A stretch of 52,847 nucleotides of DNA, from NCBI GenBank assembly GCA_047638595.1, contig JBLIMJ010000005.1, positions 1 to 52,847 on the forward strand, in the 5' to 3' direction. Shown one piece after another: positions 3,590-41,816 of the stretch. The DNA is from Acidimicrobiales bacterium. Lineage in GTDB: Bacteria > Patescibacteriota > Minisyncoccia > Phycocordibacterales > UBA918. A model generated the notes under the pieces. It searched no databases, was not told the DNA's origin, and saw only the letters and a program-made list of their open reading frames with translations. Within the stretch, counting starts at the first letter, position 1. Each line of letters starts with the position of its first letter. A program made the translations under genes and the position numbers.

Positions 3590-4006
3590 TTACGGACAAA
3601 CGGTTGCAGTTGCGTTATAACTTGCAGCTACGTGCTCACCTGAACCACCTAAACTGTCAACACAATAGAAATCAGTTGAAGAGACGAGCGATGAAGTGAT
3701 TCGGTATGCTGTTGCGCTTGAATCGCACATATCAGCTGCAATACTACCACCAGCATTCTCTACCGCATCACTTGCGTTTGCGAGTACTGCATCACCACAA
3801 AGACCAGTGTATGTATTAGCGGTGTCGTCATAGAACAGCTCGGCCTGCGCCCGAGTGTTATTAATACTTGACTTAATAGCTGCATCAGCCCCTTTACTTC
3901 TAGCTGTGTTCAATGATCCCAATACCACTGAAGCGAGGATACCGATGATTGCAATTACAACCAGGAGCTCGATGAGCGTGAAACCTCGATTTAATTTTTG
4001 TTTCAT
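3590..4006 (-). CDS. pilA: Major type IV pilin
   Basis: RG|FTLIELLVVIAIIGILASVV, 138 aa, C-terminal Cys residues, own terminator. Confidence 0.88.
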   Translation of the reverse strand: MKQKLNRGFTLIELLVVIAIIGILASVVLGSLNTARSKGADAAIKSSINNTRAQAELFYDDTANTYTGLCGDAVLANASDAVENAGGSIAADMCDSSATAYRITSSLVSSTDFYCVDSLGGSGEHVAASYNATATVCP

Positions 4007-4286
4007 ATTAATGAAATTATTTTTTATAATTAATAATTATGTCTATTTGTATTCAGTCATCAGCTGAGTGACCCAATAAAAACAAACGTAACTCCACGTT
4101 GTGTGGATTTCTCTATTATAGAGGTATTTTGTACATAAATATTACCCATGTGGGGAAAACCTCCACAACTGACATAAACTGCAGCAAAGTTTTTCTCTTT
4201 TGTGAAGTAGTCATAAGAGTTACGTTTCAGGGCTGATAAATAAAGCACGAGCTTTCTTTCCCATTTATCAAAATAGGTTCTGGATT

Positions 4287-4501
4287 AATACAATCTAAAA
4301 AACTGGATGGATTGCGCGATGGACAAGAAAGAAAACCTGAGCGGGGCTTCATGCCCAGCGTGAGAAAGTCTGGGAGACTTTTGCAAGAGGTTGGCTAGTA
4401 TTTTGAAGAATGAAAAATACTGACGACCTGAACAGCTTCTGTAAGAAGGGTCTATTTTCGCAGTCTAACAAAGCAAGTCGCCAGTTTTTTTAGATTGTAT
4501 T
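4287..4501. repeat. Palindromic element whose arms mirror the pilC 3' end and which encloses a structured module
   Basis: AATACAATCTAAAAAACTGG (4287-4306) vs CCAGTTTTTTTAGATTGTATT (4481-4501), one indel; internal 4360-4448 is homologous to 29931-30020. Confidence 0.75.
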
Positions 4502-7156: not shown

Positions 7157-9004
7157 TTATACTCCAAGTACTTTTGGCGATTGGGGGTTATCGACAGGTT
7201 GTGTGGAAAATGACATATCTTCAGTTTTTATCCCAGATAGATCTTCAGCTTCCTCGACATTGTTATCCAGACCAACTTTGGAACCAAACGCAGTCATCTC
7301 TTCGTAAGGTATAACATGATCTAGTGCTTTAAAAATTGCATCTTCCTTCAATGTGGTAAAACCATTTTCGCGTGCCACATTGTAAATCTCTTCTTCTGAA
7401 CCTCCACTTAAAATAAGCTCTCTGATTCTGTCATTAACCTCAAAAGTTTCCATAACTGCGACACGACCTTTCGTTCCTGTGGTACATCCTGGAGTTGATT
7501 CTGGATGCATCATGGTTTTATTCTTTGGAATACGATCATGATACTGTTTTGGGAGCGTAGAAAATTCTTTATCAATCATTGTTTGCACACTCCCTTCAAT
7601 ATTCATCTCTGTACCCGTATCAGGACATAACCGCCGAGCAAGACGTTGAGCAATTGCCAATTTCAATGTTGGTGCAATCAGGTACGGATCGACTCCCATG
7701 TCGATAAGACGAGGAATTACACCAATGGAGTTATTGGTGTGAATGGTTGAGAATACTAAGTGTCCAGTCAGCGCAGCCTGTATGGCGAGTTGTGCCGTTT
7801 CTTTATCACGAATCTCACCAACCATAATAATGTCTGGATCCTGACGCAGCGCACTTCGCAAACCAGCAGCAAATGTATATCCGATTTCTGGCCTCATTTG
7901 AGACTGACTGACGTCAGCAATATTATATTCTACTGGATCCTCCAAAGAGAGTACGTTTTTTGTTATTTTATCAACTTCAGACAGAATGGTATACAGCGTT
8001 GTTGACTTACCCGAACCAGTTGGACCTGAGATCAGGATAATGCCATATGGTTCTTTCACTACTTCACGTATCACCCCAAGGTGATACGGTGATATCCCTG
8101 TATCCTCCAAACTACTCACACCCCGTTGATTATCTAAAATACGCATAACAACCTTCTCACCGTGATTGGTAGGCAAAATAGAAACACGGAAATCAATTTT
8201 TCGGCCATCGAAAGTTGCGGAAAAACGACCATCTTGTGGTTTACGTTTCTCATCAAGTCGCATTGAGGATAAAATTTTTACGCGTGCGACTGCAGCATCC
8301 TGAACATTTTTGGGTAATTCAAGACTCTTTACCAATTCACCATCAACACGAAAACGAACCACCACCTTTCCCCCCGTTGGTTCAATATGGATATCAGATG
8401 CGCCACCGTCTACTGCATAACGTAAAATAGTTGCAACAATCTTAGTAACAGGAGCGTCTTCCTTAAGGTTGCTTACCTGTTGTTTTGCATCTTGCCCATC
8501 GGTTTCACCTTGCTTTTCAGCAATATCAGCATCAAGTTCGTTTTCAAGCGAATCAAGTGCTTCATCTACTTCACCTGTAAGGGATTCATACACCTGTAAA
8601 GCTTGCTCAAGCTCCTGATCAAGCATAAACACTAACTTGAAGGGTATGTTCTGTTTTGTACTCACAAAGTTGAGTGCTTCGCGTAATTGTAGATTTTCTG
8701 GATCATTCACTGCGACAATAAGTATATTGTCTTCTACCCGTAAGGGAAGTAATCGATAGTGCCGTGCAGATTCTTCTGGAATATAGGCGAGTACTTCACG
8801 GTCAATCGTATCATCGGTAGTTAACTGTTGAGGCGGTATTCCATAATATTCAGCAAAAGTACTGCGCACTATATCTGCAGACACACCAACTTGTGTGAGT
8901 GCTTTTTCATACGAGATTCCTTCTTTTGAAACAGCATTTTCGACATCCACCCTATCTTCCGATGTCAAAGCTCCAGTCTCCACTAATGTGTCGAGTACTT
9001 CCAT
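7157..9004 (-). CDS. pilB: Pilus assembly ATPase PilB/GspE
   Basis: ASDIHIEP, PQDGR, GPTGSGKST, LRQDPD, GEIRD, TGHLVFSTIH. Confidence 0.93.
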   Translation of the reverse strand: MEVLDTLVETGALTSEDRVDVENAVSKEGISYEKALTQVGVSADIVRSTFAEYYGIPPQQLTTDDTIDREVLAYIPEESARHYRLLPLRVEDNILIVAVNDPENLQLREALNFVSTKQNIPFKLVFMLDQELEQALQVYESLTGEVDEALDSLENELDADIAEKQGETDGQDAKQQVSNLKEDAPVTKIVATILRYAVDGGASDIHIEPTGGKVVVRFRVDGELVKSLELPKNVQDAAVARVKILSSMRLDEKRKPQDGRFSATFDGRKIDFRVSILPTNHGEKVVMRILDNQRGVSSLEDTGISPYHLGVIREVVKEPYGIILISGPTGSGKSTTLYTILSEVDKITKNVLSLEDPVEYNIADVSQSQMRPEIGYTFAAGLRSALRQDPDIIMVGEIRDKETAQLAIQAALTGHLVFSTIHTNNSIGVIPRLIDMGVDPYLIAPTLKLAIAQRLARRLCPDTGTEMNIEGSVQTMIDKEFSTLPKQYHDRIPKNKTMMHPESTPGCTTGTKGRVAVMETFEVNDRIRELILSGGSEEEIYNVARENGFTTLKEDAIFKALDHVIPYEEMTAFGSKVGLDNNVEEAEDLSGIKTEDMSFSTQPVDNPQSPKVLGV

Positions 9005-11851: not shown

Positions 11852-12463
11852 ATGACTCTGGATTACAAAGCAATTTTGCATTTTCTCTTTCCTTTATCAG
11901 AAGATGAGCAGATATTAGTTGCGGCTACTCTTGAGGATTTTCTGCCAAAAGTAGCAGGACAATCGCGAGAACCTATCATCTCGTTACTCCACTACTCTGA
12001 TGCTCATGTCCGTAGTGCAATTCACCTAGTCAAATTTCATAACCATGTGCACGCGCGAAAACTGCTTGCACATACTCTCGTTACATACTTATCCGCACAC
12101 ACTACACATGAAGCTATACTTGTTCCTGTACCACTTTCTGCAAAGAGAAAGCGAGAACGTGGATATAATCAGGTAAGTGTCGTTATACAACAGGCAAACC
12201 TTAGGGCAATACTTGTGGAGAATATACTCATGCGCAAAAAACACACCATTCCCCAAACATCACTGGCACGCACAGAACGATTACAAAACGTGACCAACGC
12301 TTTTGGTATTAGTAACCACAAAATTGCTCTGGAAAAAATCTCAGGGAAGCACATTGTTCTTATCGACGATGTGACCACTACTGGCGCGACACTTGAAGAG
12401 GCAAAAGCTGCGCTTTTGCCTCTTCAGCCCGCATCAGTTACCTGTATTGCACTAGCACACTAA
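11852..12463 (+). CDS. comF: ComF family competence phosphoribosyltransferase-like protein
   Basis: VPVPLS...RGYNQ, LIDDVTTTGATL. Confidence 0.9.
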   Translation: MTLDYKAILHFLFPLSEDEQILVAATLEDFLPKVAGQSREPIISLLHYSDAHVRSAIHLVKFHNHVHARKLLAHTLVTYLSAHTTHEAILVPVPLSAKRKRERGYNQVSVVIQQANLRAILVENILMRKKHTIPQTSLARTERLQNVTNAFGISNHKIALEKISGKHIVLIDDVTTTGATLEEAKAALLPLQPASVTCIALAH

Positions 12464-21388: not shown

Positions 21389-21784
21389 TTCAAATCCCGA
21401 CATCTCTCACAAACGCAAAAGACCCTGAAAGCGAGAGCTTTCAGGGTCTGCGTTGTGTGGAGAGTAAGGGATTCGAAGCTTACAGCTTCAGTCTGCCTTT
21501 TGGACATATTACTTCGCTTCGCTCGTAATCTGTCACAAAAGCCTTTCGAATCCCTTACTCTCGCGCAAATACAACAAAACCCAAAGACATGCTTTGGGTT
21601 TTGGTATTTGCGGAGAGTAAGGGATTCGAACATTACATGTTCAGTACACCTTTTGGCTATATTATTTCGCAAGCTCATAATCTAGCTCAAAAGCTCTTCG
21701 AATCGTGCAACGCTTTTCTTAAGAAAAGCTGCACCCTTACTCTCCGCATATACAAAAACGCCCCAAAGGGCGTGATTGTATATG
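21389..21784. repeat. Array of alternating direct and inverted copies of the tRNA-Ser(ACU) 3' end separated by hairpin modules
   Basis: GGAGAGTAAGGGATTCGAA at 21459 and 21612; inverse at 21545 and 21697-21747 (interrupted); degenerate inverse at 21389. Confidence 0.9.
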
Positions 21785-21871
21785 CGGAGAGTAAGGGATT
21801 CGAACCCTTGGAACCGTTTAAAGTTCGGCAGTTTAGTAAACTGCTGCTTTCGACCACTCAGCCAACTCTCC
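21785..21871 (-). tRNA. tRNA-Ser(ACU)
   Basis: GGAGAGT/ACTCTCC acceptor, G73, long variable arm, anticodon arm GCAGT-TTACTAA-ACTGC, GGTTCGAATCC T-arm; CCA not encoded. Confidence 0.88.
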
Positions 21872-29129: not shown

Positions 29130-29733
29130 CTTCTATTCCTCCTCTGCTTTAGACTTATCTAAGCATCTAAAGATACTGATGGCAAGGTTGTTGTTTTATT
29201 TTCCCTAATATAAAACCGATAAGAACCGAGCGAGAGGTTCTACAGAATAGCTATGACAGAAAAATAATTGTGTGCACATCAATGTAGAAAAAGTACCTGT
29301 GAACACCCATATTGCAACCACAATAAGCAATAAAAAATAGCCGCTCTGAAGCGGCTACAGTTCCATCACACCAGAGTTTTCCTTTATGGTACCGGCGAAT
29401 CATCAGCGTAGCTTGGGATTACTACCTAAGCAGTCACATCAAATATTTAACCAGTAAACACTCTGTCGAGATAACACCTCACTTTCTCAGCGTTTTTGCT
29501 GCTTTGTTACATTGCTCGCTTTAAATACTTGTTTCATGGGGTGTATCTCCTTGATGAAGGGTTAGTAGGCACATTCGTGTGTACCTAATCAGAATATACT
29601 CTAACAAAACAAATCTGTCTACTTAAAACTGACAATAAACTCTTTAACGGAAAACAACAACATGGTCCTATATGCAATTGAGTATGCAGCAATTTCACGG
29701 TATAGTGTTGGACGTTGGCAAAGAATTCTTTGT

Positions 29734-29806
29734 CCGCCTGTAGCTCAGTTGGTAGAGCGCGAAGCTTATACCTTCGTGGTCCTAGGTTCGAGTCCTAGCG
29801 GGCGGA
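29734..29806 (+). tRNA. tRNA-Ile(UAU)
   Basis: CCGCCTG/CGGGCGG acceptor, A73, D-arm AGCTCAGTTGGTAGAGC, anticodon arm CGAAG-CTTATAC-CTTCG, T-arm CTAGG-TTCGAGT-CCTAG. Confidence 0.9.
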
Positions 29807-29830
29807 CAAAGGATTTTTTCTATTGGGGCA

Positions 29831-30059
29831 AGCTCAATTGGTAAGCATAGCTTTCTTGGATTGCATTCGAGAAAAATGAAAGTAAACTTTCACTTTGTCT
29901 CTCATTTGTCCAAGTAGAGCACGAAGCTTCCGTCTTACAGACGCAGTATACCTTGTCGATATTTTTCGTAACCTCAAAATATCAGGCAAGGTCTTGCGAC
30001 AGTCCCCCAGACTGTCTCACCTTCGTGGTCCTAGGTTCGAGTCCTAGCGGGCGGACAAA
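29831..30059 (+). pseudogene. Interrupted second copy of tRNA-Ile with structured insertions in the D-loop and anticodon loop
   Basis: AGCTCAATTGGTA [~73 bp] GAGCACGAAGCTT [~89 bp] ACCTTCG...GGACAAA; 30019-30059 identical to 29770-29810; 5' acceptor strand lost. Confidence 0.8.
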
Positions 30060-30062
30060 CGC

Positions 30063-30104
30063 AAAGAAAAACCCTTCAAACTAAAGTCTGAAGGGTTTTT
30101 CTTT
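30063..30104 (+). terminator. Intrinsic terminator-like hairpin
   Basis: AAAGAAAAACCCTTCA...TGAAGGGTTTTTCTTT. Confidence 0.7.
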
Positions 30105-30125
30105 AGCAACTGCCCTGCGGCAGTT

Positions 30126-30298
30126 GCGGCGTTTGTCCGCGACGAAGCGATGTTTACGAGCAAGTCAGGGGCAAGAGCGGCGTTTGTCCGCGACGAAGCG
30201 ATGTTTACGAGCAAGTCAGGGGCAATGCGGCGTTTGTCCGCGACGAGATGATGTTGCCTTGGCAACCATCGAGTCAGGGACAAGTGCGAAGCTAGTCC
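30126..30298. repeat. Tandem repeat with 50-51 bp unit (2 near-identical copies, 1 diverged)
   Basis: GCGGCGTTTGTCCGCGACGA starts at 30126, 30177 and 30227. Confidence 0.9.
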
Positions 30299-39636: not shown

Positions 39637-39689
39637 AACATGGAAATATATAGAAGGATATGGAAGTTTGCTCGTGAGAGTAAACTTCT

Positions 39690-41816
39690 TTATTTTGGGG
39701 TACCTTCCAGTTTTTCAGTATATTGATATACATTCACTCCAAGACTATTATCAATAATGAGCTGGTTGCCGGAAACATATAACGTGCTGCCTTCGTCCTG
39801 AGTCAGTCCATCTTCACTACTATAGATCTTCCACTGTTTAGTTTGTGTGTTGAACTTTACTAAACCTCTGTCGGTAAGGAGCCAGGCTACATCCTCATCC
39901 AAAACAGCATCTGTGACACCGTACCCAGGATTAACACCAAAAGCGTTCACGAGCATAGGGAGAGCAATCCGGTGGATTTCATCAGTACCATCTGGTCTAA
40001 TAGTTTTTACCTTGAGAATATTACGGTCTTCTTTTATATTTCTCTTTACATATTCAATATCACTTGAAGATTCAAAGGGTACAAACTCCCCATAATCAAT
40101 ATATTTGATATCAAATTCTGGATGTTCAGTTGCTTCTTGATAGGTTCTATTAGTAAGATTAAGAGCAAACGATTGCGGCTCTTCAGTGTAGGAGTTATGG
40201 AGAGTAATGCCAACTAACTCTTCGTCCCAGACCATTCTCCAACCTGAATTTATAGAATTGAATGACTCAGCTAATTCCAATTGACCAGTTTCTCTATTCC
40301 ATACGGTGGTTGTCGCTGAATATCCTGAATCATCCCGACATTCCATCCCATCGCAATACTCGGCAACATGAACAACTAGAGCAGTTGGGTACAACTTTGC
40401 TTTGACATCAAAACTATTTGACAACAAATCATCATCATTTAATTCAAAACTCGGTTTGTATTTTTGTATGTCGTATAGCACGACACCGTTTCTGGTCTTT
40501 ATTATCATCTCGCTACCTTGCACATCTAAGATTTGAGTGTCGGTATATTGGTATCGATTATAAATATCGGCAAAAGTTAATAGCTGCACATCTTCCGGAA
40601 CACCATCTACAGCACGAAATGTCACAACATACGGATGTTCTACAAAAAGCCTACTTGAAGGTCGAAGTATATACCGGTCGTGAATTTCGTCGTATGTAAT
40701 ATCAACCATACTTAAACTTGTACTGGCACTGTTGTTAAATAGTTGTGTATAGTCAATTGTGCGAGTCTCTTGTGAAATGATGTTGTAAGCTTGGAGCTTT
40801 TGTTGTTTTGAGAAGTAAAACCAATCATTTTCTAAATGTAAACCTATAGCTATTGGTTCAGCTCTGTCAAAAGTTCTGAGAACATTCCAAGTTTGTAACT
40901 CTCTATCAAAAACATACTCGGTATCATCTTCCTCAATAACTATATAGTCCTTGCTCCCCACGCTGGCATATACAGGATCGACCCTACTATTAACTTCTCC
41001 TTCAGTAACAAATGTTTCTGTTCCCCAAGCCGTCCATATTCCACTGGTTTTGTTTAATCGAGCCACTCCCCCAGTGTTGTAAGCATTCGCTGCCACTGTT
41101 ACCCAGACGGTATTCTGGTCTATGTAAAAAACGTTCGGCTGCCAGACACTTCCTGGAATACCAATTTCTCTCGAGTATGATTGGAAGGTTCGACTTGAAA
41201 GATCAAACCGAGACAAACCTCTGAATGTACCTATCCAAACGGTATTATTGTCGTAAGGATCAGGATGAAATCTAATATTTGATTTATCGGCTAAACCATC
41301 TTGGGTACTGTATAACTGTGTTTCATTAGTATCTAAATCATACACGCCGATACCTTCACCAGTCACAAATAGAATCAATCTACCTACTTTAGTGTAGTCT
41401 CCTAATTTTAGATTTGGCACTACATCGTAAAGAGAAATCGAAGTAATACTTCCTGTACCAGCGTCGTAAAGAGACAACCCTCTGTCGTCTCTGACGATAA
41501 AGGAAGTAGTGCTTTTTGGATCAGGCTTGACGTTAAATCTAGAAGTATTAGGAAAATATACTTTTTGAACAAAAGGCAACTGATTGTTATCAACTATTTC
41601 TTGAGTATCGCCGACTCTCTCCACGGAGTCTTGTGTGGCGGTGTTGTGATCAGCATTATCGCGAACATAAAAGATAGCAAGGATCATCGTTGCTACAGAC
41701 AGCACTACAAAGAACGATGCCGCCATCAGCACTTTTCTTTTAGTGCTGATCGTGCTGGTTTCAGTCTGGTGGGGATTCTCGTTTTCAATTTCTGCTGAAT
41801 TTTCAAGTTCTTGCAT
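39690..41816 (-). CDS. Membrane-anchored beta-propeller repeat protein
   Basis: Single N-terminal TM; YSTQDGL, VWIGTFRGL, YSSEDGL propeller-type repeats; start taken at MQELEN. Confidence 0.7.
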   Translation of the reverse strand: MQELENSAEIENENPHQTETSTISTKRKVLMAASFFVVLSVATMILAIFYVRDNADHNTATQDSVERVGDTQEIVDNNQLPFVQKVYFPNTSRFNVKPDPKSTTSFIVRDDRGLSLYDAGTGSITSISLYDVVPNLKLGDYTKVGRLILFVTGEGIGVYDLDTNETQLYSTQDGLADKSNIRFHPDPYDNNTVWIGTFRGLSRFDLSSRTFQSYSREIGIPGSVWQPNVFYIDQNTVWVTVAANAYNTGGVARLNKTSGIWTAWGTETFVTEGEVNSRVDPVYASVGSKDYIVIEEDDTEYVFDRELQTWNVLRTFDRAEPIAIGLHLENDWFYFSKQQKLQAYNIISQETRTIDYTQLFNNSASTSLSMVDITYDEIHDRYILRPSSRLFVEHPYVVTFRAVDGVPEDVQLLTFADIYNRYQYTDTQILDVQGSEMIIKTRNGVVLYDIQKYKPSFELNDDDLLSNSFDVKAKLYPTALVVHVAEYCDGMECRDDSGYSATTTVWNRETGQLELAESFNSINSGWRMVWDEELVGITLHNSYTEEPQSFALNLTNRTYQEATEHPEFDIKYIDYGEFVPFESSSDIEYVKRNIKEDRNILKVKTIRPDGTDEIHRIALPMLVNAFGVNPGYGVTDAVLDEDVAWLLTDRGLVKFNTQTKQWKIYSSEDGLTQDEGSTLYVSGNQLIIDNSLGVNVYQYTEKLEGTPK

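Follow-up and report, generated by a model that had tools for sequence, protein, structure and literature searches.

A broken second copy of tRNA-Ile(UAU) interrupted by two dispersed, likely mobile hairpin elements in a Patescibacterium

The interrupted copy and its intact neighbour

A tRNA gene with one insert in its D-loop and another in its anticodon loop invites the question whether these inserts are introns or something else. The gene copy that raises this question lies beside an intact tRNA-Ile(UAU) gene in a window of 52,847 nt, by which we mean the whole stretch of DNA that was analysed (contig C5 of a genome of 927 kb, with 41% GC and a completeness of 91%). The features of the locus, and one further feature of the window, are listed below.

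29734..29807, + strand: intact tRNA-Ile(UAU) (ARAGORN; Rfam RF00005, 69.1 bits; close matches genus-wide)
29720..29819, no strand assigned: inverted repeat formed by leader and trailer, which prolongs the acceptor stem (arms 29720-29738 and 29801-29819, 89% complementary)
29831..29843, + strand: duplicate of tRNA positions 9-21 (5' strand of the D-stem, and D-loop up to GTA; 12/13 identical)
29844..29916, - strand: GTA element, a 73-nt insert in the D-loop (a small and a long hairpin, GTA at both ends)
29917..29929, + strand: duplicate of tRNA positions 22-34 (3' strand of the D-stem, 5' strand of the anticodon stem, CTT; 12/13 identical)
29930..30020, no strand assigned: three-hairpin element of 91 nt that replaces two anticodon-loop bases (profile matches; relatives)
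30019..30059, + strand: attR-like repeat of the 3' half of the tRNA, 41 nt without a mismatch, reaching from A37 as far as the trailer AAA
30063..30104, no strand assigned: terminator-like, A/T-tailed hairpin closing the duplicate (missed by a simple terminator scan)
30119..30270, + strand: three repeats of ~51 nt, each with the reverse complement of the tRNA 3' end
4360..4449, no strand assigned: second full three-hairpin element of the window, between two pilus genes with no tRNA near (profile search)

The original prediction had described a second copy that follows the intact tRNA and keeps the D-stem, the anticodon stem and a perfect 41-bp 3' half. The repeat comparison agrees, as positions 29770-29810 recur at 30019-30059 with a spacing of 249. 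The two 5' fragments are not chance similarities, because in 20,000 Markov controls of the unit they occurred four times and twice singly, but never together. Furthermore, the interrupted copy is not an assembly artefact, since a contig from the sequencing run of a second, different study spans positions 29826-30115 with 0 differences. An interrupted second copy of tRNA-Ile(UAU) positions 9-76 beside the intact gene is thereby confirmed.

Mapping of the two inserts onto tRNA positions bore out the claim that they spare the stems. The ~73-bp D-loop hairpin had been described as bounded by a GTA direct repeat, and the insert at 29844-29916 indeed has GTA on both sides. The replacement of the anticodon by a ~90-nt module needed refinement: a 91-nt module is present at this position, but it takes the place of two loop bases rather than being cleanly inserted. 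The CAC with which the module naturally ends overlaps A37-C38 of the 3' repeat. The copy lacks the 5' acceptor strand and cannot be a tRNA alone, as had been foreseen; the best 7-mer of the linker pairs at only 5/7 positions with the 3' acceptor strand of the copy, G-T pairs counted. The fold of the interrupted region beats all 200 shuffles (z -4.4). DNA contigs, which drop rare forms, contained no joint that skips either insert, and no circle or excision joint.

Several other features of the neighbourhood deserve mention. Comparable inverted repeats flank the intact gene in relatives, and the region 30026-30154 shows 83% similarity to a tRNA-Lys(UUU) on contig C24, over the 3' end and trailer of that gene. 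The tRNA-Ile with UAU anticodon (29734-29807 of the window) is conserved across the genus; a tRNA-Ile with this anticodon reportedly replaces the lysidine system in Mycoplasma mobile.

Inserts in tRNA loops and the intron reading

The placement of both inserts had been called intron-like. Group I, group II and archaeal bulge-helix-bulge introns likewise interrupt tRNA loops, and group I introns have been reported in tRNAs of Patescibacteria. Moreover, removal of the GTA element restores the D-loop exactly. It is nevertheless hardly credible that we are dealing with minimal introns whose splicing, within one precursor or in trans, yields a tRNA. Cut pairs that leave a 7-nt anticodon loop give only CUC, UUC and UCC; UAU cannot be recovered by any cut, because the bases lost to the three-hairpin element belong to the anticodon loop. 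Once both inserts are removed ARAGORN calls no tRNA, the acceptor strand being absent. At 73 and 91 nt, the inserts are indeed far too short for group I/II introns, as had been argued: neither matched an Rfam intron model at the gathering threshold or at E<=10, or gave an Rfam match to a group I/II catalytic core (P7 or domain V), and inspection of the folds by eye revealed no 3-4-3 bulge-helix-bulge motif.

The genomic context points in the same direction. In the 91%-complete genome, searches for splicing endonuclease (PF01974), RtcB and reverse transcriptase found none of them. As interrupted genes would escape a gene caller, we added a scan for stray D-arm and T-arm motifs, which revealed no lone interrupted tRNA gene. 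Within the genus, all 14 D-loop cases lay in a duplicate at most 75 nt from an intact tRNA (30 loci retrieved of the 63 matches listed). Unlike tRNA introns, the elements recur as dispersed repeats, were never seen in a lone gene and leave the anticodon unrestored. In our best reading, both inserts are not introns, and the copy is a pseudogene rather than a split or intron-bearing tRNA. As a separate observation, an insert in the 23S rRNA gene (G000:C14:~7590-7910) resembles a group I intron by eye.

The structure of the GTA element also speaks against an RNA intron. In an alignment of 25 copies, 90.4% of the cells were paired and 22 of the 28 pairs changed on both sides, whereas none of 500 shuffles was as high and slid controls reached 28-49%; these copies were related, hand-picked for near-equal length, and the structure was drawn from the same sequences. 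On the RNA-sense strand, the stems contained 32 A-C against 6 G-T oppositions, which places the wobble pairs on the antisense strand. In addition, an invariant pyrimidine mismatch pair becomes a tandem G-A on the other strand. Together, these two features suggest that the folded strand is likely the antisense strand, which is absent from the tRNA precursor. Apical loops on the antisense strand were TTTA in 19, CTTG in eight and TTCA in seven of 45 copies (34/45 in total), and loops of these types would suit DNA hairpins.

Joining the ends of the element at GTA lets a small terminal hairpin stack on a 7-bp basal stem across a 1x1 mismatch in 33 of the 45 copies; the rule fails in the other 12, several of which look like script parsing errors. 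This geometry suggests that a closed rod may be the mobile form of the element. Alternatively, the apparent closure could simply mean that two hairpins stack while the element is inserted. The direct repeat measures 3 nt, the 7-bp basal stem is offset from the end and variable, and no parent transposon was found.

Two dispersed hairpin families at duplicated RNA genes

A seeded profile detected 18 matches to the GTA element in the genome; seeding was needed, as a profile of the single insert matched only itself. The start motif occurred in 43 of 128 genomes of the genus, compared with five control matches, and 400 other genomes sampled from the phylum contained no match to the strict two-ended pattern. 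Among the genomes searched, this sequence type looks restricted to the lineage. Both ends were resolved in 45 copies. GTA stood at both ends in 30 of these, and 24 were 74-75 nt long. The preceding base was T or G in 42 copies and the following base A or G in 42, so that the site consensus reads T/G-GTA-A/G.

The sites themselves are varied. They comprise the D-loop of tRNA-Ile and tRNA-Gln duplicates, the junction of acceptor stem and D-arm, pieces of tRNA-Thr, tRNA-Asn and 5S rRNA, and the first loop of the three-hairpin element. At the acceptor/D-arm junction (C16, L152, L165 and L219) the stem arm of the GTA element is identical to the seven bases with which the intact gene begins, and insertion therefore leaves the gene whole. 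One site exists both as an empty allele (L141) and as a filled allele (L144); another anticodon-loop insert likewise has a filled and an empty form (L310 versus L324). With filled and empty alleles and precise ends, the GTA element fits the broad notion of a non-autonomous mobile element. No such pair of alleles emerged for the three-hairpin element. In metagenomes, 17 of 25 pattern matches were true GTA elements, some of them near-duplicates, and 16 of these 17 had an intact tRNA-Gln or tRNA-Ile in the retrieved locus, while the 17th lay at a contig end. Carriage by phages was considered and rejected: none of the 18 viral matches to the start motif fitted the profile or lay near a tRNA, and we ascribe them to chance. 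A hairpin with the apical motif of the GTA element was also noticed at 39640-39690 of the window, 3' of the tmRNA gene.

The three-hairpin element is more abundant, with 63 matches to an iterated profile in the genome, a few of them overlapping. Twenty-three matches were at most 500 nt from a tRNA, none was inside a called tRNA, and 40 were isolated far from tRNAs. A strict pattern for this element occurred at more than 111 places in the species collection; in 80 retrieved loci, 47 of 82 matches were within 500 nt of a tRNA. The record labels of the 80 matches listed named Patescibacteria groups in 61 cases, only 'bacterium' in 13 and other organisms in six, and viral sequences gave no match. 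The stems are variable and covary, and the first stem was perfect in 26 of 29 parsed copies, with about ten different sequences. In the relatives L006, L007 and L154, the element sits at the same anticodon junction as in the window. It replaces 2 nt after a G, according to two script-resolved cases and a few read by eye, and leaves no target duplication. Separately, module clusters lie beside T-loop-like sequence with no called tRNA near (G000:C17:~3900-4130 and ~11900-12300), and no tRNA-Asn was called in this assembly.

Duplication of RNA genes extends well beyond tRNA-Ile. Fragments of a tRNA's own sequence were found at most 500 nt away from 27 of the 34 tRNAs in the genome, against 0 in the control. 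Behind most tRNAs the layout was often the 3' end, a terminator, the reverse complement, a module and the 3' end again. The 5S rRNA gene (C14:8522-8630) is followed by its own positions 26-51, 55-89 and 91-104, split by both element families; within this interrupted duplicate (G000:C14:8522-9470), one element family is nested in the other. A comparison of orthologous loci, proposed at the outset as a check, revealed the same layout at tRNA-Ile and tRNA-Gln in relatives. Among 40 distinct tRNA-Ile(UAU) loci, including that of the window, a neighbouring fragment of the own tRNA was present in 21 and absent from 19 (control 0), where the genus counts are not independent owing to kinship and some loci are near-duplicates. 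Of 66 diagnostic sites, 47 carried the local allele in the fragments, 15 the allele of this genome and four neither. That the fragments mostly follow the local allele points to repeated local origin or conversion.

Other arrangements were encountered in the same comparison. In L145, L146, L154 and L320, an intact tRNA-Ile(UAU) with flanking inverted repeats of ~20 nt lies between its own 5' and 3' halves, both severed at the anticodon loop, as though it sat inside a copy of itself. The tRNA-Ile duplicates of L002, L006, L007, L144, L157 and L162 carry a T-loop insert family beginning with CACCACAAGAG-like sequence, and related pieces occur at G000:C16:7900-7960 and C29:2680-2740. Finally, a well-formed tRNA-Ser(ACU) at 21784-21871 of the window (- strand) adjoins tRNA-Ser(GCU). 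L036 has the same pair, and there the gene of a large serine recombinase terminates within it. In bacteria, tRNAs with A34 other than tRNA-Arg are unusual.

Movement, rival explanations and known systems

We consider it probable that the locus is a broken tandem copy of tRNA-Ile(UAU), carrying one member each of two dispersed, likely non-autonomous hairpin families that move as folded single-stranded DNA. The GTA element would excise as a closed rod, whose two ends pair across the junction with the 1x1 mismatch. The element would insert where tRNA and 5S genes expose single strands, by exchanging strands within the shared GTA. When an essential gene is the target, an insertion would persist only if the gene is rebuilt or if a duplicate is hit, which would explain why the elements pile up in neighbouring copies. 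As the most likely catalyst we propose, as a guess, an HUH enzyme (Y1, RAYT-like) that acts in trans. A bolder version sees in these elements a new class of gene-less, target-adaptive mobile DNA of less than 100 nt, which would move about as closed single-stranded rods or dumbbells, seek out GTA and loop sites in tRNA and 5S genes and copy the target into its stems so that the gene is rebuilt, driven by a host or other enzyme; we regard this version as doubtful.

The search for a mobiliser gave few leads. The genome has two RAYT-like Y1 genes, located at C1:59775-60428 and C8:198-872, both of which carry other hairpins. The AGGTT..AACCT core of the middle hairpin recurred in hairpins flanking 4 of 31 Y1 loci, a likeness limited to a 10-bp core, and no more than 36 of 61 relatives yielded a Y1 gene. 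Modules lay beside candidate mobilisers in 1 of 29 Y1 loci, 1 of 30 loci of large serine recombinases and 1 of 30 GIY-YIG loci. Clustering of the neighbouring proteins of 80 module loci yielded mostly housekeeping genes, with serine recombinases at three. The 91%-complete genome contains one tyrosine recombinase, on contig C7, and a small GIY-YIG gene on C18; resolvase, serine-type recombinase and IS110 transposase were not found in it. The replication-strand bias of the elements was not significant (p 0.07-0.16).

Some genes near tRNAs were recorded alongside this search. An HNH-like gene lies between an intact tRNA-Tyr and displaced 3' fragments with modules (G000:C10:25060-26240), as cargo in a tRNA 3' duplication. 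Free-standing genes that by eye resemble LAGLIDADG or HNH nuclease genes end directly upstream of tRNA-Gly (C2:66138-66809 and C4:3803-4474), tRNA-Leu (C23:10737-11162) and tRNA-Ser (C38:4252-4674). A large serine recombinase domain was present in 28 of 36 genus relatives and was not found in this genome. In L225, L226, L227, L233, L236, L248, L251, L036, L054 and L061, the last codons of the large serine recombinase enter the antisense of a tRNA 3' end.

The main rival is template switching at hairpins during replication without a dedicated enzyme, which would produce sense-antisense-sense tRNA pieces with hairpin caps that are then spread by recombination. It accounts for the order of 3' end, terminator, reverse complement, module and 3' end behind most tRNAs, for the D stems that copy the local acceptor strand at the acceptor/D-arm junction (the four loci given above), and for the fact that no mobilising gene is adjacent. 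We nonetheless judge it rather unlikely, as it leaves unexplained how a fixed unit of ~75 nt with one type of stem precisely enters unrelated GTA sites, and why 40 of the 63 three-hairpin copies lie far from tRNAs. A very improbable alternative is that the modules are kept as functional RNA or DNA signals, either as aids to processing or termination or as decoy attachment sites that shield the tRNA genes against integrating elements. Their strong covariation, their presence at the same tRNA sites in many genomes and the use of these tRNAs by integrases fit such a role. The distribution is patchy, however, with 19 of 40 tRNA-Ile loci devoid of a fragment, the copies are decayed and their mutual nesting looks random, while selection for structure follows from mobility alone.

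Equally improbable is that nothing more is present here than the attR scar of an island that carried an integrase, sat at the anticodon loop and was later lost, the outcome that had been named as fatal to the original prediction. Williams reportedly described in 2002 that integrative elements target tRNA genes, with attL/attR at the anticodon loop or T-loop. As in such elements, the locus combines an intact gene with a displaced 3' half, and the perfect 3' repeat begins in the anticodon loop; moreover, in 9 of 30 loci from relatives a large serine recombinase gene directly adjoins a tRNA. The 3' repeat is thus attR-like, yet both inserts and the 5' fragments are genuine and have counterparts in relatives, and the inserts are members of dispersed families. 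In contrast to tRNA-targeting integrative elements, the 249-nt unit is gene-less, the 5' half is duplicated as well, and reverse-complement copies of the target are present. No integrase gene or cargo was found in the flanks, the serine type was not found in the 91%-complete genome, and the same layout occurs at 5S rRNA. The attR scar as sole account is hence largely refuted.

Their folded single strands, short target motifs that lack long duplications and mosaic nesting make the elements reminiscent of REP/BIME and IS200/IS605 biology. In the sections of PMC8266576 and PMC6006769 that we draw on, Y1 enzymes of the REP/BIME and IS200/IS605 systems cut and rejoin folded single strands. REP/BIME/REPIN repeats with TnpA-REP (RAYT), as portrayed in parts of PMC8266576, PMC6006769 and PMC3733652, share with our elements that they are short, gene-less, multicopy hairpins that form mosaics and likely fold as single strands; a motif with GTA at the base of a small hairpin and Y1 genes in the host are further likenesses to these portrayals. 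In contrast to the repeats in those parts of PMC3733652 and PMC8266576, our elements have no fixed GTAG or CGTC tag, and the GTA element begins with GTAA. They also differ from the repeats so portrayed in being multi-hairpin units of 75-91 nt, in entering tRNA and 5S copies at GTA instead of CT/CA sites, and in not flanking a cognate RAYT gene (1 of 29 Y1 loci). Hence, our elements are multicopy extragenic palindromic repeats, but they do not belong to the REP family, as they have no GTAG/CGTC tag and no cognate RAYT.

IS608 uses a TTAC target. Similar to IS200/IS605 derivatives, the GTA element, read on its structured strand, lies 3' of YTAC and ends in TTAC, without a long target duplication. 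It differs from them in that the AAAG position expected to serve as guide varies (A, C, G), that no autonomous partner was found, and that its stems sometimes copy the target. Rickettsia palindromic elements insert into RNA genes. Unlike these, the elements described here sit in dead duplicates or rebuild the gene, and are not tolerated inside a functional RNA. As far as part of PMC3184786 describes them, Rickettsia palindromic elements and other bacterial MITEs are also small, structured, lineage-restricted repeats with filled and empty sites; compared with that description, our elements have no conserved terminal inverted repeats common to a transposon, and it is not clear that they are classical MITEs. 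For IS608, the portion of PMC6006769 consulted describes a single-stranded circle. We found no description of either family in the literature searched, which covered few subscription journals and no supplements. The GTA and three-hairpin elements are likely miniature structured mobile repeats that are apparently undescribed in that literature.

For genome annotation, the results are a warning that copies of this kind are pseudogenes, and not split or intron-bearing tRNAs. The GTA element offers a short and well-defined substrate (~75 nt, with known ends, a known target and a filled/empty pair), which makes its mobiliser directly testable. If the rod intermediate and the copying of the target are true, they would reveal a new strategy by which DNA without genes of its own can safely target essential RNA genes. 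What appeared to be a tRNA with two introns becomes evidence for families of small mobile hairpins that reshape most tRNA loci (27 of 34) in these streamlined Patescibacteria.
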